Shown: piece after piece, positions 457 to 47,539 of the stretch
How positions within the stretch are numbered: position 1 is the stretch's first letter
Layout of the letters: the number at the start of each line of letters is the position of its first letter
From: a virus
Lineage: Duplodnaviria > Caudoviricetes
Direction: 5' to 3' (one strand)
Virus record (IMG/VR): IMGVR_UViG_3300039828_000001
Location: 1-58,139 of that record
Length of the DNA stretch: 58,139 nt
Notes under the pieces: generated by a model
Told to the model about the DNA's origin: nothing
What the model saw: the letters and a program-made list of their open reading frames with translations, nothing else
Databases searched by the model: none
Position numbers and translations under genes: made by a program

Positions 457-2224
457 GCAGGAGGAGTTCCGCGACGCGGCGGAGGTCGCCGTCTCGCGCG
501 CCGTCGATGCGGCGACGCGCGCGTGGCTCGCGGACGTGCTCGCGGCGATCCGTGGCGGGCTGCGCGAGGGCCTGCCCGCCGACTCGCTCGTGGCAGCCGG
601 AGCCGAACTCCCGCTCAACCTCGGGACGATGAGCCGGTGGTGGGCCGACCGCGTGAACGGCGGCGTCGCGACGGCGATCCGCGCGGTGTGGGAGCAGGCG
701 TACGTCCGCACCCGGCCGGGCGAACTGCTCTCGTCCTCGCTCGACCGGCTCGACACGTTCATGGCGGCGGTGAGCGACCGGCTCGTACGCGGGCTGGTGC
801 CGCCGCTGCCGGACGACGCGATGGACCGCGTGCGGTACGTCATCACGCAGTCGGCCGCGCTCGGGTGGTCCACGCAGCGCACCTCGCAGAACATCGCGAC
901 CGCGCTGTCATGGGAGCAGGACGGGCGCGCGCTGCGCCGCGAGTACGACCGTCTCACGGGCGACATCGAGGCAATCCTGGACCCGCTCGGTCCCCCGGGT
1001 ACTCCCGCGCGCGAGGCTGCGCGTACGGGTGACCCGCGCGTGCGCGCGCTACAGGATCTGCGGGCGCAGACGGTCACGGCGCTCGACAGCGAGAAGTCGC
1101 ACTGGCAGGTCCGCGCCGACCGCATCGCCCGCACCGAGAGCACGGCCGCGTACAACTTCGCCAACCTCACGGCGCTCGCGGACGAGGGCTGGACGCACAA
1201 GGAGTGGATGGCGACGCGCGACACCCGCACGCGCGAGGCACACGTTGACCTCGACGGGCAGGTGGTCCCCGTGGCCGAGCCGTTCATCGTGGATGGCCTG
1301 CCGATCATGATGCCGGGCGACCCGTCGGCCGCCGCGTTCCTCACGGTCAACTGCCGGTGCATCCTGGTCGGCGCCGACGCTCCCCCGGGCGAGGTCGAGC
1401 CGACCGCCGCCCAGATCACGCAGGAGACCGCCAGGGCTCTCGAACAGGCGCTCCCGGCACCCGCGCCCGCGCCGACCACGAACGCCGCCCCAGTGCCCGC
1501 CTCCGCGTCCCAGGTCATCCCCTTCGCCCAGCGCGTGCCCGCTCTGCGGGGCGAGCCGACTCGTGAGGCTCGGGTTGCGGCCGAGGCGCTGTTTACCGAC
1601 TTCACCTCGCAGATCAACGATGCCTGGGCGGGTCAAGGGGTCGTCGCCAATCGGATAACGCACTCCGTCGACAAGGGCCGGGTGAAGATGTCGTGGACGC
1701 TGGTCGATGCGAACGGGGCTCACGTCGGGAGCCTTTCGCGGCAGGTGCGCCGTCTTCCGGACGGTCCGGTCGTAGTCGAGAACACCTTCTTCGGACTCAC
1801 CCCAGAAGCGCAGGGCGGGGGCTTGGCGAACAACCTCGCGGCGCGTCTTGAGGACTGGTACCGGCGCAGCGGCGTGACGGCGGTCGTGGTGCACGCGAAC
1901 ATCGACGTGGGCGGGTACACCTGGGCGCGGCAGGGCTTCGAGTGGGATCCGGAGATTCAGGGATGGGCTGACGTGAAGCGCTTGCTCCAGCGCTTCTGGG
2001 AGTACGCCTCTGCACGAGATCAAGTGGACCTGTGGAGGGCAGCCGTCGAGAACAACAAGGACAACCCGGACGCCTGGCCGAGTCCGTACGAACTCGCGAT
2101 GTTCGGGTGGGAGGGCCGGTTGCCGGACCCGAAGCGGCCCGGCAAGGAGACGTGGGTCGGGCAACGCGCGATGCTCAACACGGACTGGTACGGGCGCAAG
2201 CCGCTCGGAGAGGAGCCTGCATGA
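428..2224 (+). CDS. MuF/SPP1 gp7-like head morphogenesis protein with C-terminal GNAT-like domain
   Basis: MuF motifs RIARTE, KEWMATRDTRTREAH, PGDP and VNCRC; Pro/Ala linker; C-terminal AQGGGLA...HANIDVGGYTWARQGF. Confidence 0.85.
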   Translation: MALVELTRAEQEEFRDAAEVAVSRAVDAATRAWLADVLAAIRGGLREGLPADSLVAAGAELPLNLGTMSRWWADRVNGGVATAIRAVWEQAYVRTRPGELLSSSLDRLDTFMAAVSDRLVRGLVPPLPDDAMDRVRYVITQSAALGWSTQRTSQNIATALSWEQDGRALRREYDRLTGDIEAILDPLGPPGTPAREAARTGDPRVRALQDLRAQTVTALDSEKSHWQVRADRIARTESTAAYNFANLTALADEGWTHKEWMATRDTRTREAHVDLDGQVVPVAEPFIVDGLPIMMPGDPSAAAFLTVNCRCILVGADAPPGEVEPTAAQITQETARALEQALPAPAPAPTTNAAPVPASASQVIPFAQRVPALRGEPTREARVAAEALFTDFTSQINDAWAGQGVVANRITHSVDKGRVKMSWTLVDANGAHVGSLSRQVRRLPDGPVVVENTFFGLTPEAQGGGLANNLAARLEDWYRRSGVTAVVVHANIDVGGYTWARQGFEWDPEIQGWADVKRLLQRFWEYASARDQVDLWRAAVENNKDNPDAWPSPYELAMFGWEGRLPDPKRPGKETWVGQRAMLNTDWYGRKPLGEEPA

Positions 2225-2439
2225 CGTACGCACAGGACCGCGTGATCCGGCGCGTGTTCGCGGAGTGGCGCGCGGAGGTCGCCTCGCGCGTCGAGGTCGA
2301 GCGGCGGTACCTGACCGACGAGCGCTCGCAGTACGGCGAGGCGCCGGAGGCGCTGAGCGCGAGCCCAGCCGACGACACCGAGTTGCACCGCCGCGTCCAA
2401 CAGGCGCTGATCGAGGCCGGACTGCCTCAGATACCCTGA
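2221..2439 (+). CDS. small hypothetical protein coupled to MuF (possible immunity partner)
   Basis: ATGA overlap with the MuF stop; GAGGAG RBS; 72 aa. Confidence 0.7.
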   Translation: MTYAQDRVIRRVFAEWRAEVASRVEVERRYLTDERSQYGEAPEALSASPADDTELHRRVQQALIEAGLPQIP

Positions 2440-2492
2440 GCCCAGAATCCCGCTGCTGGCCTTGGGCCGGGCGCTCTGAGAGGAGCACCCCC

Positions 2493-3965
2493 ATGGCAGC
2501 GCGAGTCATCAAGATCCCTCGCACGCAGAGCGCTCGCGTGCAGGCCGTCGTCGCATCGAGCGCATCGTTCGCGGAGGCGGCTCAGACCGCCCCCGACACC
2601 GCCGCTTCGGCACCTACCTGGTCCGGCCCGATCGTGGTCGAGAACGAGATGACCGGCGACGCCCGGCTCATCGAGTCCGGCGCGCTGCGCTGGGACACCC
2701 TCCCGATTCCGCTCCGGTGGGCGCGCGAGGACACTGGCGGCCACCAGGGCGCTGAGGTCGTCGGGCGCATCGAGACGATCGAGCGTGCCGCCTCGGGCCA
2801 GATCCTCGCCACGGGCACGTTCGACGTGGGCTCGGAGGTCGGCCGCGAGGCGTACCGCCAGGTCGCGGAGGGCCTGACTTCGGGAGTCTCGGTCGACCTC
2901 GATGACATCGCCTTCGAGGTGCGCGTCGCCTCCGAGATCATCGAGGCGAGCGAGGCGATGTGGGCCGAGATGATGGAGGGCGGCGAGCCCCCGGAGCCGG
3001 AGACCGACGACGAAGGCCGTGTCGTCGTCCTCAAGATCGGCAAGGACGACGAGGTGATGGTCACGACCGACGCGCGTATCCGCGCGGCGACGATCGTGGC
3101 TGTCCCGGCATTCGAGAGCGCGCGTCTCGCCATCACGGACCACGGCGATCTCGCCCTGGCGGCGAGCGCTGCGCCGGGCGGGACCCCCGCACTCGCCCTC
3201 GTCGCGTCCGCCGCGCCGGTCAACCCGCCTGCTGCGTGGTTCGCCGCGCCGACGCTGACCGGGCCGACGGCCCTCCAGGTCACCGAGGATGGACGCGTGT
3301 TCGGCCACCTCGCGCTGTGGGAGACGTGCCACACCGGCTACTCCGGTCAGTGCGTCACGCCGCCCGCCTCGAACTCGGGCTACGCCTACTTCCGCACGGG
3401 CGCGCTGCTCACCGAGGATGGCACGGAGGTGCCGGTCGGAGCGCTGACCGTCGACACGATGCACGCCCCGAGCCGGGCCAGCGCGAAGGCGAGCCTCGCG
3501 CACTACGACCACACCGGCACCGCCGTCGCGTGGGTCTCGGCGGGCGAGGACGAGTGGGGCGTGTGGGTGGCGGGCGCGCTGCGCTCCGACGCCTCGGACG
3601 AGCAGGTGGCCGTTCTCCGGTCGTCCCCGCTGTCGGGCGACTGGCGCCGGATCGGCACCTCGATGGAACTCGTAGCCGCGCTCGCGGTCAACGTCCCCGG
3701 GTTCCCGGTCCCGCGCACGCGCGCGCTCGTGGCCTCAGGCGCGATGCAGTCCCTCGTGGCCGCCGGGATGGTCGCGCCGGATCGCGTCATCGCCCCGGGG
3801 CAGCCGGGCGCGCTCACGTCGGACGACCTGCGGTACCTGAAGCGGCTCGCCGCGCGGGAGCGCTCAGCCGAGGTCGCGCGGGCGGTCGTGCCCGACGACG
3901 ACCCGGCGCTGCTCCGGTTGCGGGCGAAGGCGTTGGCGCTGCGCGTCGGCGTTGGGGCACGCTAG
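2493..3965 (+). CDS. capsid maturation protease / head assembly protein
   Basis: Lies between MuF and the capsid genes; TGDAR, H...VVGRI, GVSVDLD, ATIVAVPAF and LSGDWR motifs typical of actinophage prohead proteases; GAGGAG RBS. Confidence 0.75.
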   Translation: MAARVIKIPRTQSARVQAVVASSASFAEAAQTAPDTAASAPTWSGPIVVENEMTGDARLIESGALRWDTLPIPLRWAREDTGGHQGAEVVGRIETIERAASGQILATGTFDVGSEVGREAYRQVAEGLTSGVSVDLDDIAFEVRVASEIIEASEAMWAEMMEGGEPPEPETDDEGRVVVLKIGKDDEVMVTTDARIRAATIVAVPAFESARLAITDHGDLALAASAAPGGTPALALVASAAPVNPPAAWFAAPTLTGPTALQVTEDGRVFGHLALWETCHTGYSGQCVTPPASNSGYAYFRTGALLTEDGTEVPVGALTVDTMHAPSRASAKASLAHYDHTGTAVAWVSAGEDEWGVWVAGALRSDASDEQVAVLRSSPLSGDWRRIGTSMELVAALAVNVPGFPVPRTRALVASGAMQSLVAAGMVAPDRVIAPGQPGALTSDDLRYLKRLAARERSAEVARAVVPDDDPALLRLRAKALALRVGVGAR

Positions 3966-4419: not shown

Positions 4420-4935
4420 ATGAAGATCACCCGGACGGTCAACGAGAACGGCACCTACCGCTACGAGATTGACGGCAAGGTCCAGTACGCGGCGAGCAAG
4501 GTTCTCTACACCCACGCCAGCACCTACGCCATGGGTGACTCGACCCCGGTGCTGTTCCACAAGACCGAGGCCGCTGCGGGTCGCGCCAAGGGCTACGCCA
4601 CGAGCGGCTGGGTCAAGACCGCCGTCCTGGAGATTGAGGCTACGGTCGAGGCGCCCGCCGAGGTCTCTCCGGTCGAGGTCGAGGCTCCGGCCGCCGAGCC
4701 GACCATGACCGTCGAGGTCACCTGGACGGTAGGCGACTCGGTGATCGAGTCCCGTACGGTCGCGATTCCCGCCGCCGCCCGCCCGGCGCGCTACGTCATC
4801 GCTCGCCAGACGCTGAAGGACTGGGGCCTGAGTGCTGAGATGACCGGCCGCCGTACGGTCGAGAGCGGTCTCTGCTGGACCCTGACCGACAGCGCGGGCT
4901 TCCCGGCCGGAGCCGTGACGGTCGCCACCCCCTGA
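4420..4935 (+). CDS. hypothetical protein
   Basis: AAGGAG RBS; high-GC3 codon usage. Confidence 0.75.
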   Translation: MKITRTVNENGTYRYEIDGKVQYAASKVLYTHASTYAMGDSTPVLFHKTEAAAGRAKGYATSGWVKTAVLEIEATVEAPAEVSPVEVEAPAAEPTMTVEVTWTVGDSVIESRTVAIPAAARPARYVIARQTLKDWGLSAEMTGRRTVESGLCWTLTDSAGFPAGAVTVATP

Positions 4936-26840: not shown

Positions 26841-27175
26841 GCCTCGGCGTCCTCTCGCGCGGCGCGCCGCTTCTCGGTCGTGGTCACGAAGGTCACGAGG
26901 AACTTCGTGATCGCGTTGCTCAGCGTCTCGCCGTTGCTCCGGGCCTTGGTCTTCGCCGTGGCCCAGGTGTCCTTGTTCGCGTAAAACGTCGCGATCTTGC
27001 GCGGCTCAGCGCCGTTGGGGCGGCGAGCCAGGCCCATCGTCGCGCTCGGCGGAGAGTCGCTGATGATGTAGTTGTCGAGGAACGTCCCGATGATGGTGCT
27101 GAGCGGCTTATCGATGGACGCTGATGCGTCCTTCGCCCGTTCCCACAGGTCGCCGTCTATACGGATGGTAGGCAC
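26837..27175 (-). CDS. tandem ribbon-helix-helix DNA-binding protein
   Basis: Two RHH-like units (TIRIDGDLWERAK...LSTIIGTFL and ATFYANKDTWATAK...LSNAITKFL); AAGGAGG RBS. Confidence 0.7.
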   Translation of the reverse strand: MPTIRIDGDLWERAKDASASIDKPLSTIIGTFLDNYIISDSPPSATMGLARRPNGAEPRKIATFYANKDTWATAKTKARSNGETLSNAITKFLVTFVTTTEKRRAAREDAEA

Positions 27176-27196
27176 GATTCACCTCCTTGTAGTGTT

Positions 27197-27211
27197 ACTT
27201 ACGTAGTAAGT
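27197..27211 (-). promoter_or_regulatory. operator variant upstream of the RHH gene
   Basis: Palindrome ACTTAC-GTA-GTAAGT overlapping a TAGACT -10-like box. Confidence 0.55.
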
Positions 27212-27222
27212 CTAGCAGGCTG

Positions 27223-29595
27223 TCAAGAGACGATCACGCCGACATCCTTCAGGCCCCACCGACTGCCAACAGATGCCTCGGCACCCAAAGGCACGTCCAG
27301 GTCGCAGTCGAGCCGACGGAGCAGCGTGTGCGGGTTGATCATCCGGTGCATGACGCGCGCAACCGCGCGCTGCCAGTCGTCGGCCGGGACTTCGACCACG
27401 AGCGAGTCGTGCACGGTGCCGATCATCCGCACGCCCGGCACCGGCTTGCCGTACTGGCCCATCACGTCGGCCGCTGCCATCTGCATCAGGTCGCTCGCGA
27501 ACGACTGCACCGGGCTGTTCACGGCCTGCCGCTCGGCCTCGCCCTGGAGGTGCGGGTTGCCGTCGAGGATGTTCGGCACCCGCCGTACCCGCCCGAGCGG
27601 CGAGACGACCTGGCCGGTGGCGCGAGCGCGCTTGATCGAGGACATCTGCCACTCGTACATGCCCGGCCACTGCTCGAAGAACGCGCTCCAGGTCGCCTGC
27701 GCCTCCTCCGCAGTCAACTCCACGCCGTAGGCCGTCTCGGCGTACGTGCGGAAGCCCGCAGGGCTCTGGCCGTAGATCAATCCGAAGTTGGAAGCCTTTC
27801 CCAACTGCCGCCACTTACTCCAGGGATAGCCGCTTACTTCTTCGAGCGCGGGTGCACCCGCCGATGACACGACCTGCACAGCGTCATAAGGTTCTCCGGC
27901 CGGTTGTCCGAGCGGTCGTGGTTCAGATGATGCACGTCCAGCGTGTTCTGAATCCCCTTCCCAAGGCCAACCCAGCCGCTCGAAGTCTTCCCGCAGCGCT
28001 CGCAGGAGTTCTTCCGGAAGCGCCTGTACTGCTCGGGCGATATCCCGCCCTTCCAAGCGGGATTCTTCTCCCCGAGTTGCGCGCCACCACTCCCGACTCC
28101 TGGCGTCCTGATCCGCCCCGAACGCACTGCTGAGGCGTACGAGCGTTTCCGAGAGGAGGCGAGGCGGCGTGACGCTCCGCACAATTCGCAGAACTTCTGC
28201 GCCGGTCCCGTTGGGAGGTAGTCCGTTCCGCATGAGGTACAGATTCGCGGTGCGAAGCGTTTCTTCGGGGTGGAGGGTTGCGGCGATGGCGAGGTGGAGG
28301 TCACGATTCTCAGTATAAGCGTCAATCATGGGCTGACACCTAGCGATGTACGCCGCCGCGCGCAACTCGATCTGCGAGTAGTCGATCTCCGCGATGAGGT
28401 AGCCCTCGGCGGGGACGAACGCGGGCTTCAGCGCCTTGGTCACCTGCTGCATGTTCGGATCGGCGGACGAGAGCCGCCCGGTGATGACACGGCCGACGTT
28501 GTAGCGTGGATGCAGCCGCCCGTCGTTCGCCTGGAGGTCGAGCCACGCGTTCAGGAACTCCAGCCGCTTCACGGCCTGCCGGTAGATCAGCAACTCCCCC
28601 GGCAGCGGCGAGAGACCCTGGCGAGCCTGGCGCGCGAGGACGTGCCGCGACCACTGGGGCTTGCCGTTCGGGGTGATCGCATCGACGCGCAACTGTCCTC
28701 GCTCGACGGCCTGGTCTGCCCACGCCCGGAACCACAGCGAGGTCGGCGCGAACGAGGGCGTGCCGTCGAGCGGGTTCAGCGCGAGCAGCGCCTCCAGCGT
28801 CTCGTCGCGCGTCTTGCTGTCGAGGGCGATCTGGTCCCGGACCCACCCACCGTCTAGCGCGATGCCGCGCTGCTCGACGGCGGCGAGGTTGCGCACCATC
28901 GGCATGACGCACCACGAGACGAACTTCCCGAGGCGCACGGCCTCTACCTCGTCCGCCGTCTCGGGCTGCTCCTCGGTGTCGAGGTCGAGCCGCTGCGCCT
29001 CGCCCACGCGGTACGTCCAGTACGTGTCCCGGGCCGCGTACTCGCCCAGGTGGAACAGCGGCACGCGCTCGGCGGCGGCTTCCTCGCGGAAGTCGATCCC
29101 GTCGTTCCACGCCTCGATCCCGAACAAGCGCGGGGCGACCTCCTTCAGCCGGGTGCTCTCGTTCTCGTCCAGCAGGTGCGCGACGACCTGCCCGTCCCAC
29201 ACGAGATGGCCGGAGAGGTCGATGCCGGTATGGGCGAACGCCCACCGCAGGTCGAACTTCCCGTTCCACGCCTCCAGATTGCCCGCGTGCGCCATGGCGC
29301 GCACGAGCCGCTTGAACACGACGCGCCATTTCCCGCAGAACGGGCCGTCCGGGTGCGACAGCGGCACGACCCAGTTGGTCACGGTGCCGTCGAGGTCGTA
29401 GCGCAAGGGCACGGTGAACGACGCCATCACGACGCGCGCCCTTGGCGCGTGCTCATCCAGGCCGGTCGTCTCCCAGTCGAAGGTGATGCTCTCGGCCTCG
29501 TTTAGCGCCTCGACGCAGCGCGCCAGGTCGTTGTCCGACAGGACCCACGCGATGTCGCGCGGGTCGAACGTGTCGCCCTGCTGGTAGGGGTTCAC
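27223..29595 (-). CDS. polA: DNA polymerase I (family A) with a 141-codon insert
   Basis: Exo FDWETTGL and YAARD; TGRLSS.DPNMQQ; motif A DYSQIELR; motif B KASNFGLIYG; NSPVQS; motif C VHDS. Confidence 0.95.
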   Translation of the reverse strand: MNPYQQGDTFDPRDIAWVLSDNDLARCVEALNEAESITFDWETTGLDEHAPRARVVMASFTVPLRYDLDGTVTNWVVPLSHPDGPFCGKWRVVFKRLVRAMAHAGNLEAWNGKFDLRWAFAHTGIDLSGHLVWDGQVVAHLLDENESTRLKEVAPRLFGIEAWNDGIDFREEAAAERVPLFHLGEYAARDTYWTYRVGEAQRLDLDTEEQPETADEVEAVRLGKFVSWCVMPMVRNLAAVEQRGIALDGGWVRDQIALDSKTRDETLEALLALNPLDGTPSFAPTSLWFRAWADQAVERGQLRVDAITPNGKPQWSRHVLARQARQGLSPLPGELLIYRQAVKRLEFLNAWLDLQANDGRLHPRYNVGRVITGRLSSADPNMQQVTKALKPAFVPAEGYLIAEIDYSQIELRAAAYIARCQPMIDAYTENRDLHLAIAATLHPEETLRTANLYLMRNGLPPNGTGAEVLRIVRSVTPPRLLSETLVRLSSAFGADQDARSREWWRATRGEESRLEGRDIARAVQALPEELLRALREDFERLGWPWEGDSEHAGRASSEPRPLGQPAGEPYDAVQVVSSAGAPALEEVSGYPWSKWRQLGKASNFGLIYGQSPAGFRTYAETAYGVELTAEEAQATWSAFFEQWPGMYEWQMSSIKRARATGQVVSPLGRVRRVPNILDGNPHLQGEAERQAVNSPVQSFASDLMQMAAADVMGQYGKPVPGVRMIGTVHDSLVVEVPADDWQRAVARVMHRMINPHTLLRRLDCDLDVPLGAEASVGSRWGLKDVGVIVS
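27834..28325 (-). CDS. HNH endonuclease nested in the +1 frame of polA (start uncertain)
   Basis: CxxC pairs, GEKNPAWKGG, CERCG and LDVHHLNHDRSDNRPENLMTLCRSCH. Confidence 0.85.
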   Translation of the reverse strand: MTLILRIVTSTSPSPQPSTPKKRFAPRICTSCGTDYLPTGPAQKFCELCGASRRLASSRKRSYASAVRSGRIRTPGVGSGGAQLGEKNPAWKGGISPEQYRRFRKNSCERCGKTSSGWVGLGKGIQNTLDVHHLNHDRSDNRPENLMTLCRSCHRRVHPRSKK

Positions 29596-29613
29596 GGGGC
29601 TCCTTTCAGGTTG

Positions 29614-29634
29614 TGTGCTTACGTATGTAGCCTA
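29614..29634 (-). promoter_or_regulatory. promoter-operator variant upstream of polA
   Basis: Minus strand TAGGCT-ACATACGTAAGCAC followed by GAAAGGAG RBS. Confidence 0.65.
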
Positions 29635-29642
29635 CCCTACCG

Positions 29643-31190
29643 CTACGGGCGCAGGTGCCTCAGCATGGCCGTCTCCAGGTCGGTCCGGTCGCGGTGCGCT
29701 CCGAGCACCACCTCATCGACCGAGCCGGGGACCACGACGTTCCAGAAGGTGACGTGCGAGCCGGTCTGGCCGATGCGGTTGAGCCGGTCGCGGGCCTGCA
29801 CGAAGTCGTCCCGCCGCTCGCTGAGCGAGGCGAACACGGCATGGCTGCTGGTGACGAGTTCGTTCACGGCAAGCGACAGGGTGCGCATCTGCGCGACCAG
29901 CACGAGCCGCTTCGGCTCGGCGGACCCGAACCGCTTCCGCATCCTCTCGCGCTCGCGCGGGGGAGTGTCGCCCGTGATCACGAGCACGTCCGTGTCGGCA
30001 CGTACGCACGCCGCCGCGATGTCCGCGACCTCGCGCTTGAAGTGGGCGAACACGACCACGCGGCTCTCCCCGTCGAGCGTGTCGTTCACAACCGAGGCCA
30101 CGGCATCTGTCTTCGAGGTGCCGACCCGCTCCGTGATGCCCGTGTCGGTCACGACGTAACCACTCGTGATCTGGCGCAGCCGCATCATCTGCGTGAGCCG
30201 GTTCGGCACAGTCGCCAGCGCGCCGGAGTCGAGCAGCGTCGCGAGCGAGTCCTTCATGTCGTCGTAGGCGCGACGCTCCTTCGGGGACAGCGTGACGGGC
30301 ACGGGAACGTCCATGACGGGTGGCAAATCGAGGGCGTCCTCCTTACGGACGACGATCGCGTTCCGGGCCATGATGTCTTGCATCTCCGCCAGGTTCTGGA
30401 AACCCACGACCTGCTTCCCCTGCCACCCGCCGAGCACCGCGTACCGCTCCTGGAAGCGCCCGTAAGGCATCGGGTGCTTGGTCTTGCCGTCCCGGTTGTC
30501 GATCGTGTGGAACGCCTCCGGCTGGAGGAACTGCCACTGCCCCCACACGTCCATGGGCGAGTGCGGCATGACGGTGCCCGACAGGATCAGTCGCCGGGGA
30601 GCGATGAGGCGCAGCCGCCGCACGGCGCGCGAGACGTTCGAGAACGCGCCCTTCAGCCGGTGGCTCTCGTCCACGATGAGCAGGTCCGGACGGTACTTCG
30701 CCACGGCCTCGATGAGCAGGTCGGTCGTGGTCTTCGAGCGCGTGACGCGCCGCTTCTGGCTGAACGAGTCGAGGCTCATCGAGATGACCCGGATCCCGGT
30801 CAGCCCGCCTTCGCGGCGAGCGCTGGCTAGCAGCCACTTCGGCGGCACGCCGACGCCGCCGACGGACAGCGCCGTCGCGCGCTGGTCGACGCGCCCACCG
30901 AGCGCCATCGCGGTGACCTGCTGGCCGACGGCGGCGTACTGCACGGCCTGGTCGACCCAGGTGTCGAGCGCGGCGACGGGTGAGAGCACGAGCACCCGCA
31001 CCTCGCGCTGCGCCTTCGCGGCGAGCATCGAGGCGTACGTGATCGCGCACCGGGTCTTCCCCGTCCCGGGATCGAGGAGCAGCGCGCAGACACCGTTGGT
31101 CTCGATGATCCGACGCACGGTCTTCACCTGGTGTTCGAACAGCGGAGGCCCCGGGAGGGTGAACCCGGAGGTCTGAGGGGAAGTCTGCAT
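29643..31190 (-). CDS. SNF2-family DNA helicase
   Basis: PGTGKT, DESH, LSGT, VVFAHF, QARDRLNRIGQ. Confidence 0.9.
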   Translation of the reverse strand: MQTSPQTSGFTLPGPPLFEHQVKTVRRIIETNGVCALLLDPGTGKTRCAITYASMLAAKAQREVRVLVLSPVAALDTWVDQAVQYAAVGQQVTAMALGGRVDQRATALSVGGVGVPPKWLLASARREGGLTGIRVISMSLDSFSQKRRVTRSKTTTDLLIEAVAKYRPDLLIVDESHRLKGAFSNVSRAVRRLRLIAPRRLILSGTVMPHSPMDVWGQWQFLQPEAFHTIDNRDGKTKHPMPYGRFQERYAVLGGWQGKQVVGFQNLAEMQDIMARNAIVVRKEDALDLPPVMDVPVPVTLSPKERRAYDDMKDSLATLLDSGALATVPNRLTQMMRLRQITSGYVVTDTGITERVGTSKTDAVASVVNDTLDGESRVVVFAHFKREVADIAAACVRADTDVLVITGDTPPRERERMRKRFGSAEPKRLVLVAQMRTLSLAVNELVTSSHAVFASLSERRDDFVQARDRLNRIGQTGSHVTFWNVVVPGSVDEVVLGAHRDRTDLETAMLRHLRP

Positions 31191-45941: not shown

Positions 45942-45967
45942 ACCCACCTGAGCAGAAGGGATTGACC

Positions 45968-47539
45968 ATGGCACGGCTGAACCAGCGCTCGATCACGGGC
46001 GCACTTGCCGCCCGTACCCCGATCACCACGACCGGCGCGAGCGTCGCCACCGCTGAGGGTGGTGTCGGGCTCGCGCGCGATGCGAAGGCCGAGTTGTTCC
46101 TCTCGGCCGTGAGCGACTTCACGGAGAAGACGTTCTACGAGGGCGTCGGCCCCCGGCAGGAGCGCCAGCGCGCGCTGCTCGCGACCGTCGCGCTGACCGA
46201 CCCGGAGTGGGTGCTTGGCTTCGTCGGGTGGCTGCGCGGCACGGCGAACATGCGCACCGTCTCGATCACCGTCGCGGCCTCGGCCGTGAAGGTCAGGCTC
46301 GACGCGGGCAAGACCGGCCACAACCGTCAGATCGTCGCGGCGGCGTGCCTCCGGGCGGACGAGCCGGGCGAGTTCCTGGCGCACTGGCTCGCGACCTACG
46401 GGCGCAACGTGCCGATGCCCGTGAAGCGCGGTCTGGGCGACGCGGCGACGCGGACCTACACCGAGTCGGCGTGGCTGAAGTGGCGCGGGAAGGGCGCGAA
46501 GGGCTCGGTCGCGATGGCGGACGTGCTCAACCTCGCCCACCCGAAGCCGCGCGCCGAGTGGCAGGGGCCGCTGTTCAAGGCGATCCTGGACCACTCGAAG
46601 GGCCGCCCGGTCGCGCTCGACGGCGACGGGCTGCCCGTGGTCGCGGCGCGGGAGACGTTCCTCTCGCTCGACAAGACCGCCCAGGAGTACCTGCTCCGGG
46701 GCGACCGGGGCTTCGACGTGGTGAAGGACGCCGCGCTGACGCACGAGGTCGTCGCTGGAGCGCTCGGGAAGGTGCCGGGCAACATCTGGCCCGCCCTCGT
46801 GCCGAACATGGGCTACCAGGCGCTCCTGATGAACCTGCGCCGGATGGTCGAGGACGGCGCTCCGGACTGGCTGATCGCGTCGATCCAGGCTCGCCTCGCG
46901 TCGGCGGAGGAGGTTGCTCGGTCGCGGATGCTGCCGATGCGGATGCTCTCGGCCTACCGCAACGCGCCGGTCGCGTTCCACTCGGCGCTCGACCAGGCCG
47001 CTCAGCACTCGCTCGCGAACGTCCCGGCGCTTCCGGGCCGGACGCTGGTGCTGGTGGACTGCTCCGGCTCGATGGGCTACCCGATGTCCGAGCGGAGCAC
47101 GCTGACTCGGATGGACGCTGCGGCGCTGTTCGGTGCGGCGATCGCGCTGCGCGCGGAGGACGCGACGTTGGTCCGGTTCGGCACGACCTCGCAGGCGGTG
47201 CCGTTCCGGCCGCGTTCCGAGAGCGTGCTCCGCCTGGCCGACCGCCTCAGCGGAAACATGGGCGGCACCGCGACGGCCGGAGCGATTCGGGCGCACTACT
47301 CCGGCCACGATCGCGTGATCGTCCTCACGGACGAGCAGGCGGCGTTCTCGGGGAGCCGGGGCGTGTTCGTCAGCGTGCCGGAGAAGGTGCACTGCTTCAC
47401 CTGGAACCTCGCGGGGTACGTGGCAGCGCACGCCGAGGCGGGTCGCTACCGGCACGCCTTCGGCGGCCTGAACGACGCGGCCTTCGACCTGATCCGCCGG
47501 GTCGAGACGGGCTTCGCCACCTGGCCCTGGGAGGACTAG
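45968..47539 (+). CDS. rsr: Ro60/Rsr RNA-binding protein (TROVE + vWA)
   Basis: EGG.G..RDAK.ELF, TFYE, NMRT, RADEPGE, KRG, HPKP, ALLMNLR, vWA MIDAS LVDCSGSM, GGT, TDEQ and WNLAGY. Confidence 0.92.
   Translation: MARLNQRSITGALAARTPITTTGASVATAEGGVGLARDAKAELFLSAVSDFTEKTFYEGVGPRQERQRALLATVALTDPEWVLGFVGWLRGTANMRTVSITVAASAVKVRLDAGKTGHNRQIVAAACLRADEPGEFLAHWLATYGRNVPMPVKRGLGDAATRTYTESAWLKWRGKGAKGSVAMADVLNLAHPKPRAEWQGPLFKAILDHSKGRPVALDGDGLPVVAARETFLSLDKTAQEYLLRGDRGFDVVKDAALTHEVVAGALGKVPGNIWPALVPNMGYQALLMNLRRMVEDGAPDWLIASIQARLASAEEVARSRMLPMRMLSAYRNAPVAFHSALDQAAQHSLANVPALPGRTLVLVDCSGSMGYPMSERSTLTRMDAAALFGAAIALRAEDATLVRFGTTSQAVPFRPRSESVLRLADRLSGNMGGTATAGAIRAHYSGHDRVIVLTDEQAAFSGSRGVFVSVPEKVHCFTWNLAGYVAAHAEAGRYRHAFGGLNDAAFDLIRRVETGFATWPWED

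Follow-up and report, generated by a model that had tools for sequence, protein, structure and literature searches.

Phage SPO1 encodes the HNH endonuclease I-HmuI in a group I intron of its DNA polymerase gene. Another HNH enzyme, I-PfoP3I, is described from a group I intron near motif B of a phage family A polymerase gene (PMC3428280). The closest described relative of the arrangement presented here is the ShiLan domain, an out-of-frame or 'hidden' HNH insertion in mycobacteriophage DNA methylase genes (Arsenault, Gosselin and Gogarten 2025, Genes 16:178, PMC11855218). In this work we describe an HNH open reading frame (ORF) hidden in the family A DNA polymerase gene (PolA) of a tailed virus, IMGVR_UViG_3300039828_000001 (Caudoviricetes). 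The window, by which we mean the whole stretch of DNA analyzed, is the complete 58,139-bp virus record and carries terminal repeats at its ends. PolA (27223–29595, minus strand) is read in one unbroken ORF of 790 aa that passes through a long insert, and the +1 frame of this insert, on the same strand, encodes a predicted zinc-finger HNH endonuclease. We estimate at roughly 0.8 the probability that the insert is a splicing-free HNH homing-endonuclease gene, with neither intron nor intein, which PolA would read through as a tolerated insertion at the tip of the fingers. An earlier reading of the window made from its letters alone (from here on, the sequence-only reading) had presented the arrangement as unprecedented, a claim that has to be given up given the precedent described in actinophage methylase genes (PMC11855218). 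The design is already known from ShiLan, and what stands out here is the host gene, apparently the sole replicative polymerase, the recurrent use of one site, and a hint of a selected peptide.

Both ORFs were found where the sequence-only reading had placed them, and Pfam supports each of the two. For the PolA ORF, DNA_pol_A was matched at 1.3e-59, split over two stretches, together with DNA_pol_A_exo1, and the invariant alignment columns DYSQIELR, K..NFG..YG, and HDS correspond to motifs A, B, and C. The AlphaFold2 (AF2) model has a mean pLDDT (predicted local distance difference test) of 90.3, with values >90 in the polymerase core, and a Foldseek search with it retrieved the Klenow fragment (1kfs_A, E 5e-28, TMt 0.83). 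All the hallmarks of a family A DNA polymerase are thus present, that is, motifs A, B, and C, the 3'-5' exonuclease domain, and a Klenow-like fold. The insert proper (27838–28267, minus strand), delimited by alignment and motif spacing, amounts to ~141–142 codons in the polymerase frame (polymerase residues ~444–585) and is located downstream of motif A, between the DLH helix and motif B. We take this site, from structural knowledge of Pol I and not from a computed superposition, to be the loop joining the two fingers helices before motif B. In the AF2 model the insert is all helical (pLDDT 73–92 at residues 441–490, 43–72 at 491–570, and 86–93 at 571–590) and its predicted helices are placed between the fingers helices of PolA.

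The HNH ORF (27834–28325, minus strand; ORF call and Pfam) has 163 aa when counted from a TTG at 28325. Its conserved core begins at 28265 (KKRF...) and its TAA stop (27836–27834) abuts the 3' junction of the insert. Two Pfam families (PF01844 / PF13392) were matched above their curated cut-offs, HNH_3 with 31.1 bits (cut-off 24.8) and HNH with 30.0 bits (cut-off 21.4). The translation opens with a putative N-terminal zinc ribbon (28179–28241, minus strand; CxxC ... CxxC, containing YLPTGPAQK), with weak Pfam DZR matches and pLDDT 77–90 over residues 1–50, and closes with the beta-beta-alpha-metal core and its flanking CxxC pairs (27846–28004, minus strand; CERCG ... DVHH ... N ... CRSCH, Pfam HNH at residues 108–160), modeled as strands at 109–113 and 126–130 and a helix at 131–137. 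The His...Asn...His core with two flanking CxxC pairs is complete (CERCG, DVHH, N, N, CRSCH..VH), and all eight zinc-ligand cysteines and the HH...N...H residues are kept. Foldseek gave no match to this model at E <= 0.001, the best solved structures being McrA (6ghc) and Cap5 HNH domains at only E 0.01–0.04. We regard the ORF as an intact, predicted zinc-ribbon/HNH endonuclease that would have nuclease activity.

Six free-standing zinc-ribbon HNH endonucleases (P0121–P0126) have the same domain order and motifs, the closest being 54% identical, and are called as separate genes, unlike the polymerase-embedded HNH. Compared with them, an embedded subgroup formed by the window, the related locus L004, and the proteins P0006–P0008 shows an extra loop of 10–12 residues. 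The nearest of the separately called homologues, P0121 (54% identity; 202 aa, known as protein only, from a contig of 1332 nt), bears a 60-residue N-terminal extension resembling an off-frame read and may likewise be embedded in another gene. The base composition of the insert tracks the HNH frame rather than the polymerase frame when analyzed by codon phase: the proportion of GC at third codon positions (GC3) is 0.93/0.89 in the PolA gene outside the insert, and within it 0.58 in the polymerase phase and 0.77 in the HNH phase, with the other lineages available as DNA behaving alike. Because the GC3 of the insert favors the HNH phase and the HNH protein has free-standing homologues, the HNH frame is the ancestral one and the polymerase-frame reading is overprinted on it.

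Insert-bearing polymerase genes could be analyzed as DNA in four lineages, namely the window, L004 (which equals L035, with L044 99.4% identical and L057 matching), L052, and L053. L035, L044, L052, and L053 were retrieved from public contigs with patterns of the HNH frame only (DVHH...TLCRSCH and YLPTGPAQK). The first pattern hit 36 viral loci, one of them polymerase-embedded (L035) and the others unrelated HNH genes, and the second gave 7 loci in a metagenome scan (one relevant, L044) and 6 in a genome scan (one relevant, L057). A locus search from the HNH alignment, which used weak N-terminal patterns, gained just the L004 contig and an unrelated locus. L057 (CBDTZB010000206.1) has the same tblastn matches as L044 and is binned in a metagenome-assembled genome labeled uncultured Nocardioides sp., which hints that the L004/L044/L057 lineage infects actinobacteria.

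It is in these four lineages that the dual coding becomes evident. The polymerase frame has 0 stops across the insert in 4/4, the third frame has 2–6, and the +1 frame is an intact HNH ORF of 134–164 aa in all of them. The HNH proteins are 49–59% identical to that of the window (L004 56%, L052 49%, L053 59%) compared to 29–43% for the insert in the polymerase frame, and in L053 the HNH identity is also above that of the polymerase itself (32–41%). For each lineage the HNH protein was kept constant while its synonymous codons were resampled from the codon usage of the polymerase gene around it; the probability of an open polymerase frame was 0.10 for the window and 0.022, 0.0026, and 0.0018 for the three other lineages. 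The joint probability is ~1e-7 for these three, found by HNH-frame-only patterns, and ~1e-8 with the window added. The polymerase frame is selected to stay open and chance is excluded. Such selection would be expected under translation through the insert and unexpected under splicing or hopping, neither of which would require an open frame.

In the window the insert is bounded by two copies of the 7-nt direct repeat CGAAGAA (minus strand; 5' copy at 28261–28267, 3' copy at 27838–27844), which lie 423 nt apart just as the sequence-only reading had reported. The weight given there to this repeat as a meaningful boundary was not borne out, as it has no counterpart in L004, L052, or L053, where the longest words shared by the junctions are 6, 4, and 5 nt, respectively. 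The same repeat is what suggests a translational bypass, with ribosomes taking off at GAA-GAA (28265–28260), landing at GAA-GAA (27842–27837), and skipping the insert. Apart from the CGAAGAA word matched at both junctions of the window, the marks of a bypass of the T4 gene 60 type are missing: the matched codons are not conserved in the relatives, the whole repeat being absent from the other three lineages, and no stop codon follows the take-off site. A hop of 423 nt would far exceed the 50-nt gap of T4 gene 60, as described in the preprint consulted (bioRxiv 10.1101/2022.08.31.505936), and would not select for an open frame, so that we consider this explanation extremely improbable. The sequence-only reading had left two ways for the element to survive, and the tolerated, splicing-free dual coding stands, with the frame open in 4/4 DNA lineages and in 11/11 PolA matches of a wider search (see below); the ribosomal bypassing falls with the unconserved repeat, the missing stop, and the selected frame.

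As to splicing, it had been proposed that the insert has neither intein ends nor room for a group I core, and the comparison with known elements agrees. The junctions read ...HPEE|TLRT... and ...APALE|EVSG..., with no C or S as first residue and no HN plus C/S/T at the end; Pfam finds no intein or Hint domain and the model of the insert is all helical. No Rfam intron family, and hence no group I or group II ribozyme, was matched at E <= 10 over 27000–29800, and the HNH ORF takes up nearly all of the 423–426 nt, so that a ribozyme core would not fit. There are, on the other hand, inteins with a shifted-frame homing nuclease in which the host frame is open and both frames are constrained, as here. 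Such inteins excise themselves from the protein; at this locus the splicing domain, the junction residues, and the Hint fold are all missing, and the extra residues should therefore remain in the polymerase. Gordonia phage Clown (L051, MT771343.1, locus 1198–3957) provides an example of the former, a 919-aa terminase with a true intein (CLSGD...VHNC) and a related HNH in its +1 frame.

One may still imagine that the insert is removed by splicing, of RNA or of protein, through an element not recognized as such, with the open frame as a side effect that, for instance, allows translation before splicing. Rfam holds described families only, and homologous HNH genes do occur in conventional introns of polymerase genes. 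In coliphage vB_EcoM_4HA13 (L050, MN136198.2, locus 971–3560), an HNH gene 29% identical to ours over residues 21–158, and sharing the IPTGP zinc-ribbon region, lies in an intron of a polymerase coding sequence annotated as joined. That interruption is inside motif B (K..NYA), ~25 codons downstream of the insertion site in the window, and its polymerase frame meets a stop just inside the insert, which is removed as RNA; in the window the frame is open and no ribozyme is found. The stops of the 4HA13 intron contrast with the open frame of the 4/4 DNA lineages, for which the joint chance probability is ~1e-7 in the three found by HNH-frame-only patterns (~1e-8 including the window), and together with the Rfam result, the lack of room for a ribozyme, the intein-less junctions, and the predicted helices they make cryptic splicing very unlikely in our view.

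The distribution of the insert is patchy. Motif A–motif B spacing was obtained for 102 of the 120 best PolA homologues and spans 43–61 residues in 98 of them and 187–190 in 4/102, which are the window protein, P0006, P0007, and P0008. The nearest relatives of the window (P0002–P0005, 646–649 aa, 69–81% identical) are insert-free, and the other carriers (P0006–P0008) are only ~50% identical to the window PolA. A quick maximum-likelihood tree of 64 polymerases, made with the motif A–motif B region masked (8 of 72 rows were dropped when the motif pattern failed), needs 5 gains or losses to accommodate its 5 insert-bearing rows, and the nearest neighbor of each one is insert-free. At the DNA level, a soil-metagenome contig from another study (run X3), whose polymerase sequence on either side of the site matches the window at ~90% identity, has no insert and joins 27789 to 28350, with 134 letters replacing 560 (a net difference of 426 nt). 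The insert-free alleles anticipated by the sequence-only reading do exist, then, in P0002–P0005, in the X3 contig, and in the 98 short spacings. This run comparison covers contigs only, uncovered parts in X3, X6, and X7 being uninformative; no insert-free variant of this same phage was seen in X1 and X2. In a second sample of the source study (X2), a contig of 3766 nt shows 0 differences across both junctions, and the assembly chimera that would have undone the case is therefore unlikely.

The block that differs from these close insert-free relatives (27790–28349, minus strand; X3 and X7 contigs, protein alignments) is larger than the insert itself and includes polymerase flanks. The contigs from a third study (X7) stop at the same two window positions as the X3 junction. 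Divergence is too high for alignment over some 44 nt downstream and 88 nt upstream of the insert, and the flanks were therefore replaced together with it. The GC proportion drops to 0.59–0.65 over 27725–28400, compared to ~0.69–0.73 in the remaining PolA gene, in line with the AT-rich flanking codons that the sequence-only reading had likened to a co-conversion tract. A parallel case is found in P0006 and the insert-free P0048, 89% identical overall and almost the same in sequence as far as the junctions, where ~17 residues upstream and 10–15 downstream are swapped; the same applies to the window versus P0002 and P0003. In sequence, the swapped residues are similar to the flanks of other carriers (DLHL..., ...W..RQ.GKA.NFGLIYG). 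Such a replacement of flanks is the pattern expected from homing with co-conversion, and would be explained if the element has moved in this way.

A search of 1.84 billion representative proteins with a profile built from the insert as read in the polymerase frame (window plus L004) gave 12 matches. Eleven of the 12 are PolA proteins that span an insert at the same site, with the frame unbroken in all 11; the remaining match (P0137) is a repeat protein and was discarded as spurious. A homologue search limited to polymerase residues 436–590 returned the query alone, although P0006–P0008 share the insert. In P0006–P0008 the +1 frame is compatible with the residues shared by two known HNH proteins at 71–76 of 83 columns, compared with 14–34% in a register-slid control made for these three only. 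A second alignment of ten sequences, with no slid control and leaving out P0006, P0008, and P0130 (motif pattern not parsed), gave compatibility at 51–76 of 77–83 columns. Such compatibility thus extends to nine of the 11 PolA matches as well as to P0006 and P0008. The signature motifs C..CG..YLPTGPAQK.C..C, GRIR.PGVGSGGAQ, WKGG, CERCG, VHH, and NL.TLCRSCH are retained. This wider family covers very different PolA lineages, some of them lysine-rich, and judging from these proteins this endonuclease family has evidently settled at one PolA site repeatedly, across deeply diverged lineages. Three members known as protein only (P0128, P0131, and P0133) combine the insert with an N-terminal uracil-DNA-glycosylase-like extension, the element crossing very different architectures. 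Another one (P0136, a PolA of 908 aa, also protein only) seemingly contains a pair of selfish inserts: an intein-like block follows ...TGRLSC, and the hidden-HNH insert precedes motif B.

In L004, L052, and L053 the HNH ORF opens with an ATG at the 5' edge of the insert, preceded by a Shine-Dalgarno (SD) sequence in two of them (GGGGGA in L004 and GGAGG in L052). In the window the only candidates are the TTG at 28325 and a GTG (28302–28304, minus strand; from the start-codon comparison with those three lineages), both upstream of the insert within the polymerase coding sequence. The +1 frame is open for 20 codons upstream of the conserved HNH core, which makes the GTG at 28304 reachable. A promoter-like site (GTGTCA-16 nt-TATACT; 28312–28339, minus strand) ends 7 nt upstream of this GTG and is found once in 3 kb versus 0.1 expected in shuffles; for the window one may reasonably guess at an internal promoter from which the HNH would be transcribed as a leaderless mRNA. 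The ShiLan authors proposed a leaderless transcript for their own element in the main text of their paper (PMC11855218). At the 3' end of the HNH ORF of L004, inside the polymerase coding sequence, there is a terminator-like stem-loop with a weak T tract (4506–4524, plus strand).

The constraint on the two frames was compared between the window and L004. Changes that alter both proteins amount to 53/548 (9.7%), those that alter the HNH only to 42/311 (13.5%), and those that alter the polymerase only to 51/278 (18.3%). Polymerase-only and both-altering changes differ (p = 0.0005), and the constraint on HNH residues is clear. The polymerase-frame insert has an identity of 0.436 between the two, for a resampling expectation of 0.33 ± 0.03, and at four-fold sites of the HNH frame identity is 15/28, not clearly above the PolA gene baseline of 54/128. 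Constraint in both frames, which had been put forward as a check of dual coding, is thus clear on the HNH side (p = 0.0005) and marginal on the polymerase side, where constraint beyond the avoidance of stops is only suggested, and weakly supported, by the comparison of HNH-only with both-altering changes (p = 0.09).

That p value is one of several points that count against a splicing-free homing-endonuclease gene read through by PolA. The polymerase-frame identity is confounded, as the window and L004 are just as similar in the third frame (0.45), which is non-coding. The absence of splicing is argued from sequence logic, no run listed as RNA containing the stretch; the middle of the insert is modeled poorly (pLDDT 43–72), and 13 insert-bearing polymerases are known as protein only, their HNH frame being deduced from the protein. 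Most relevant to the window itself, the ATG at the 5' edge present in the other three DNA lineages (with SD in two) is missing from it, its promoter-like site is a consensus match, of which L004 has none, and its HNH may be poorly expressed or heading to decay.

Taken further, the missing start would fit a domesticated or decaying state, with the insert as a fixed polymerase loop, the HNH frame as a recent, unexpressed relic, and the element immobile here, for which the lack of an insert-free variant of the same phage in X1 and X2 also speaks. Yet the 163-codon ORF is intact with all its zinc-ligand cysteines and HH...N...H residues, the GTG at 28304 is accessible in an open +1 frame with the promoter-like site 7 nt upstream, and the insert-free relatives at ~90% identity point to a recent gain or loss, so we consider this state unlikely, if less so than cryptic splicing.

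A further possibility concerns the extra peptide, which could be a selected fingers sub-domain born by the overprinting of a selfish gene inside an essential enzyme. One sign of this is found in the polymerase-frame stretch between CERCG and LDVHH, which reads ER(L/I/F/W/E)GWPWE. GWPWE (codons at 27958–27972, minus strand, from the alignment) is invariant in the window, L004, P0006, P0007, and P0008, and the same codons form a Gly-rich loop in the HNH frame that is variable and modeled with pLDDT <50 at residues 97–104. The extra 10–12 residues of this subgroup are also absent from L052, L053, and most of the wider family. The differences between the window and L004 in this stretch are silent for the polymerase and change the HNH (V/A, L/R). 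Three tryptophans of the insert, invariant in the window, L004, and P0006–P0008, need T at the HNH third position, where T is used at only 11–20% of such positions. Both ends of the insert are modeled as confident helices, also in support of a sub-domain. We hold this idea tentatively and on balance find it doubtful; if true, the element and the polymerase would be co-adapted and the site may be a portable module that alters polymerase properties.

For the tolerated, splicing-free insertion that we prefer, the following course of events can be proposed. An HNH homing-endonuclease gene would have inserted in the fingers-tip loop just upstream of motif B, in +1 to the polymerase. The PolA mRNA would stay unspliced and ribosomes would pass through the insert in frame with the polymerase, so that the fingers gain ~142 residues, most of them helical, which the enzyme would tolerate while remaining active. 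The HNH protein would be made separately from an internal start, the ATG at the insert 5' edge with its SD in the relatives and, in the window, probably the GTG at 28304, possibly on a leaderless transcript from the internal promoter. We infer that, once expressed and active, the endonuclease would cut or nick insert-free polymerase alleles near the site in mixed infections, and repair from the insert-bearing allele would copy the insert together with 10–20 codons of flank on each side, that is, homing.

The PolA gene lies in a replication module, with neighbors that encode an SNF2 helicase, a Prim-Pol/AAA primase-helicase, a PD-(D/E)XK nuclease, and an AAA_24 protein, and it appears to be the only replicative polymerase of the phage. 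Elsewhere in the window (45962–47539, plus strand) there is a gene for a 525-aa protein with a match to the TROVE (Ro60-like) domain (E 3.8e-7).

The locus suggests that a homing-endonuclease gene can colonize an apparently sole replicative polymerase merely by keeping the host frame open. It has consequences for annotation, as gene callers hide such endonucleases and the polymerases appear to carry an unexplained insert. It also provides a natural system of overlapping genes in which both frames are constrained and, for enzyme engineering, a fingers-tip site that would accept ~140 residues. A full-text literature search found no other treatment of this design, the relevant works dealing with methylases or inteins.

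The comparison with ShiLan, as presented in the main text of its description (PMC11855218), is the most informative one. In both cases close relatives lack the insertion, the host frame crosses it without a stop, and a second frame of that strand holds a complete zinc-finger HNH ORF whose end coincides with the 3' edge of the insert. Both also lack detectable signatures of an intron or intein, have a patchy distribution suggestive of homing, and encode in the host frame a peptide for which a protruding helical structure is predicted. Of the features that define a ShiLan-type element, the window shows the insert-free relatives, the stop-free host frame, the HNH ORF running to the 3' edge, the lack of intron or intein features, and the patchiness. 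The HNH proteins themselves are related, the hidden +2-frame HNH of the phage Bipolar methylase being 34% identical to the window HNH core over residues 83–159 (E 8e-4). The differences begin with the host gene, a family A DNA polymerase that is apparently the only one of the phage; the ShiLan paper stresses the dispensability of the methylase as an aid to tolerance, and its main text mentions no DNA polymerase I host. The HNH lies in +1 here and in +2 there and has 143–163 aa compared to 195, and its start is an ATG at the 5' edge in three relatives (with SD in two) versus a GTG 18 nt into the ShiLan insert. Finally, unlike ShiLan, the element occupies one and the same PolA site across many phage lineages that diverged deeply, which makes this a recurrent route of invasion rather than a single event.

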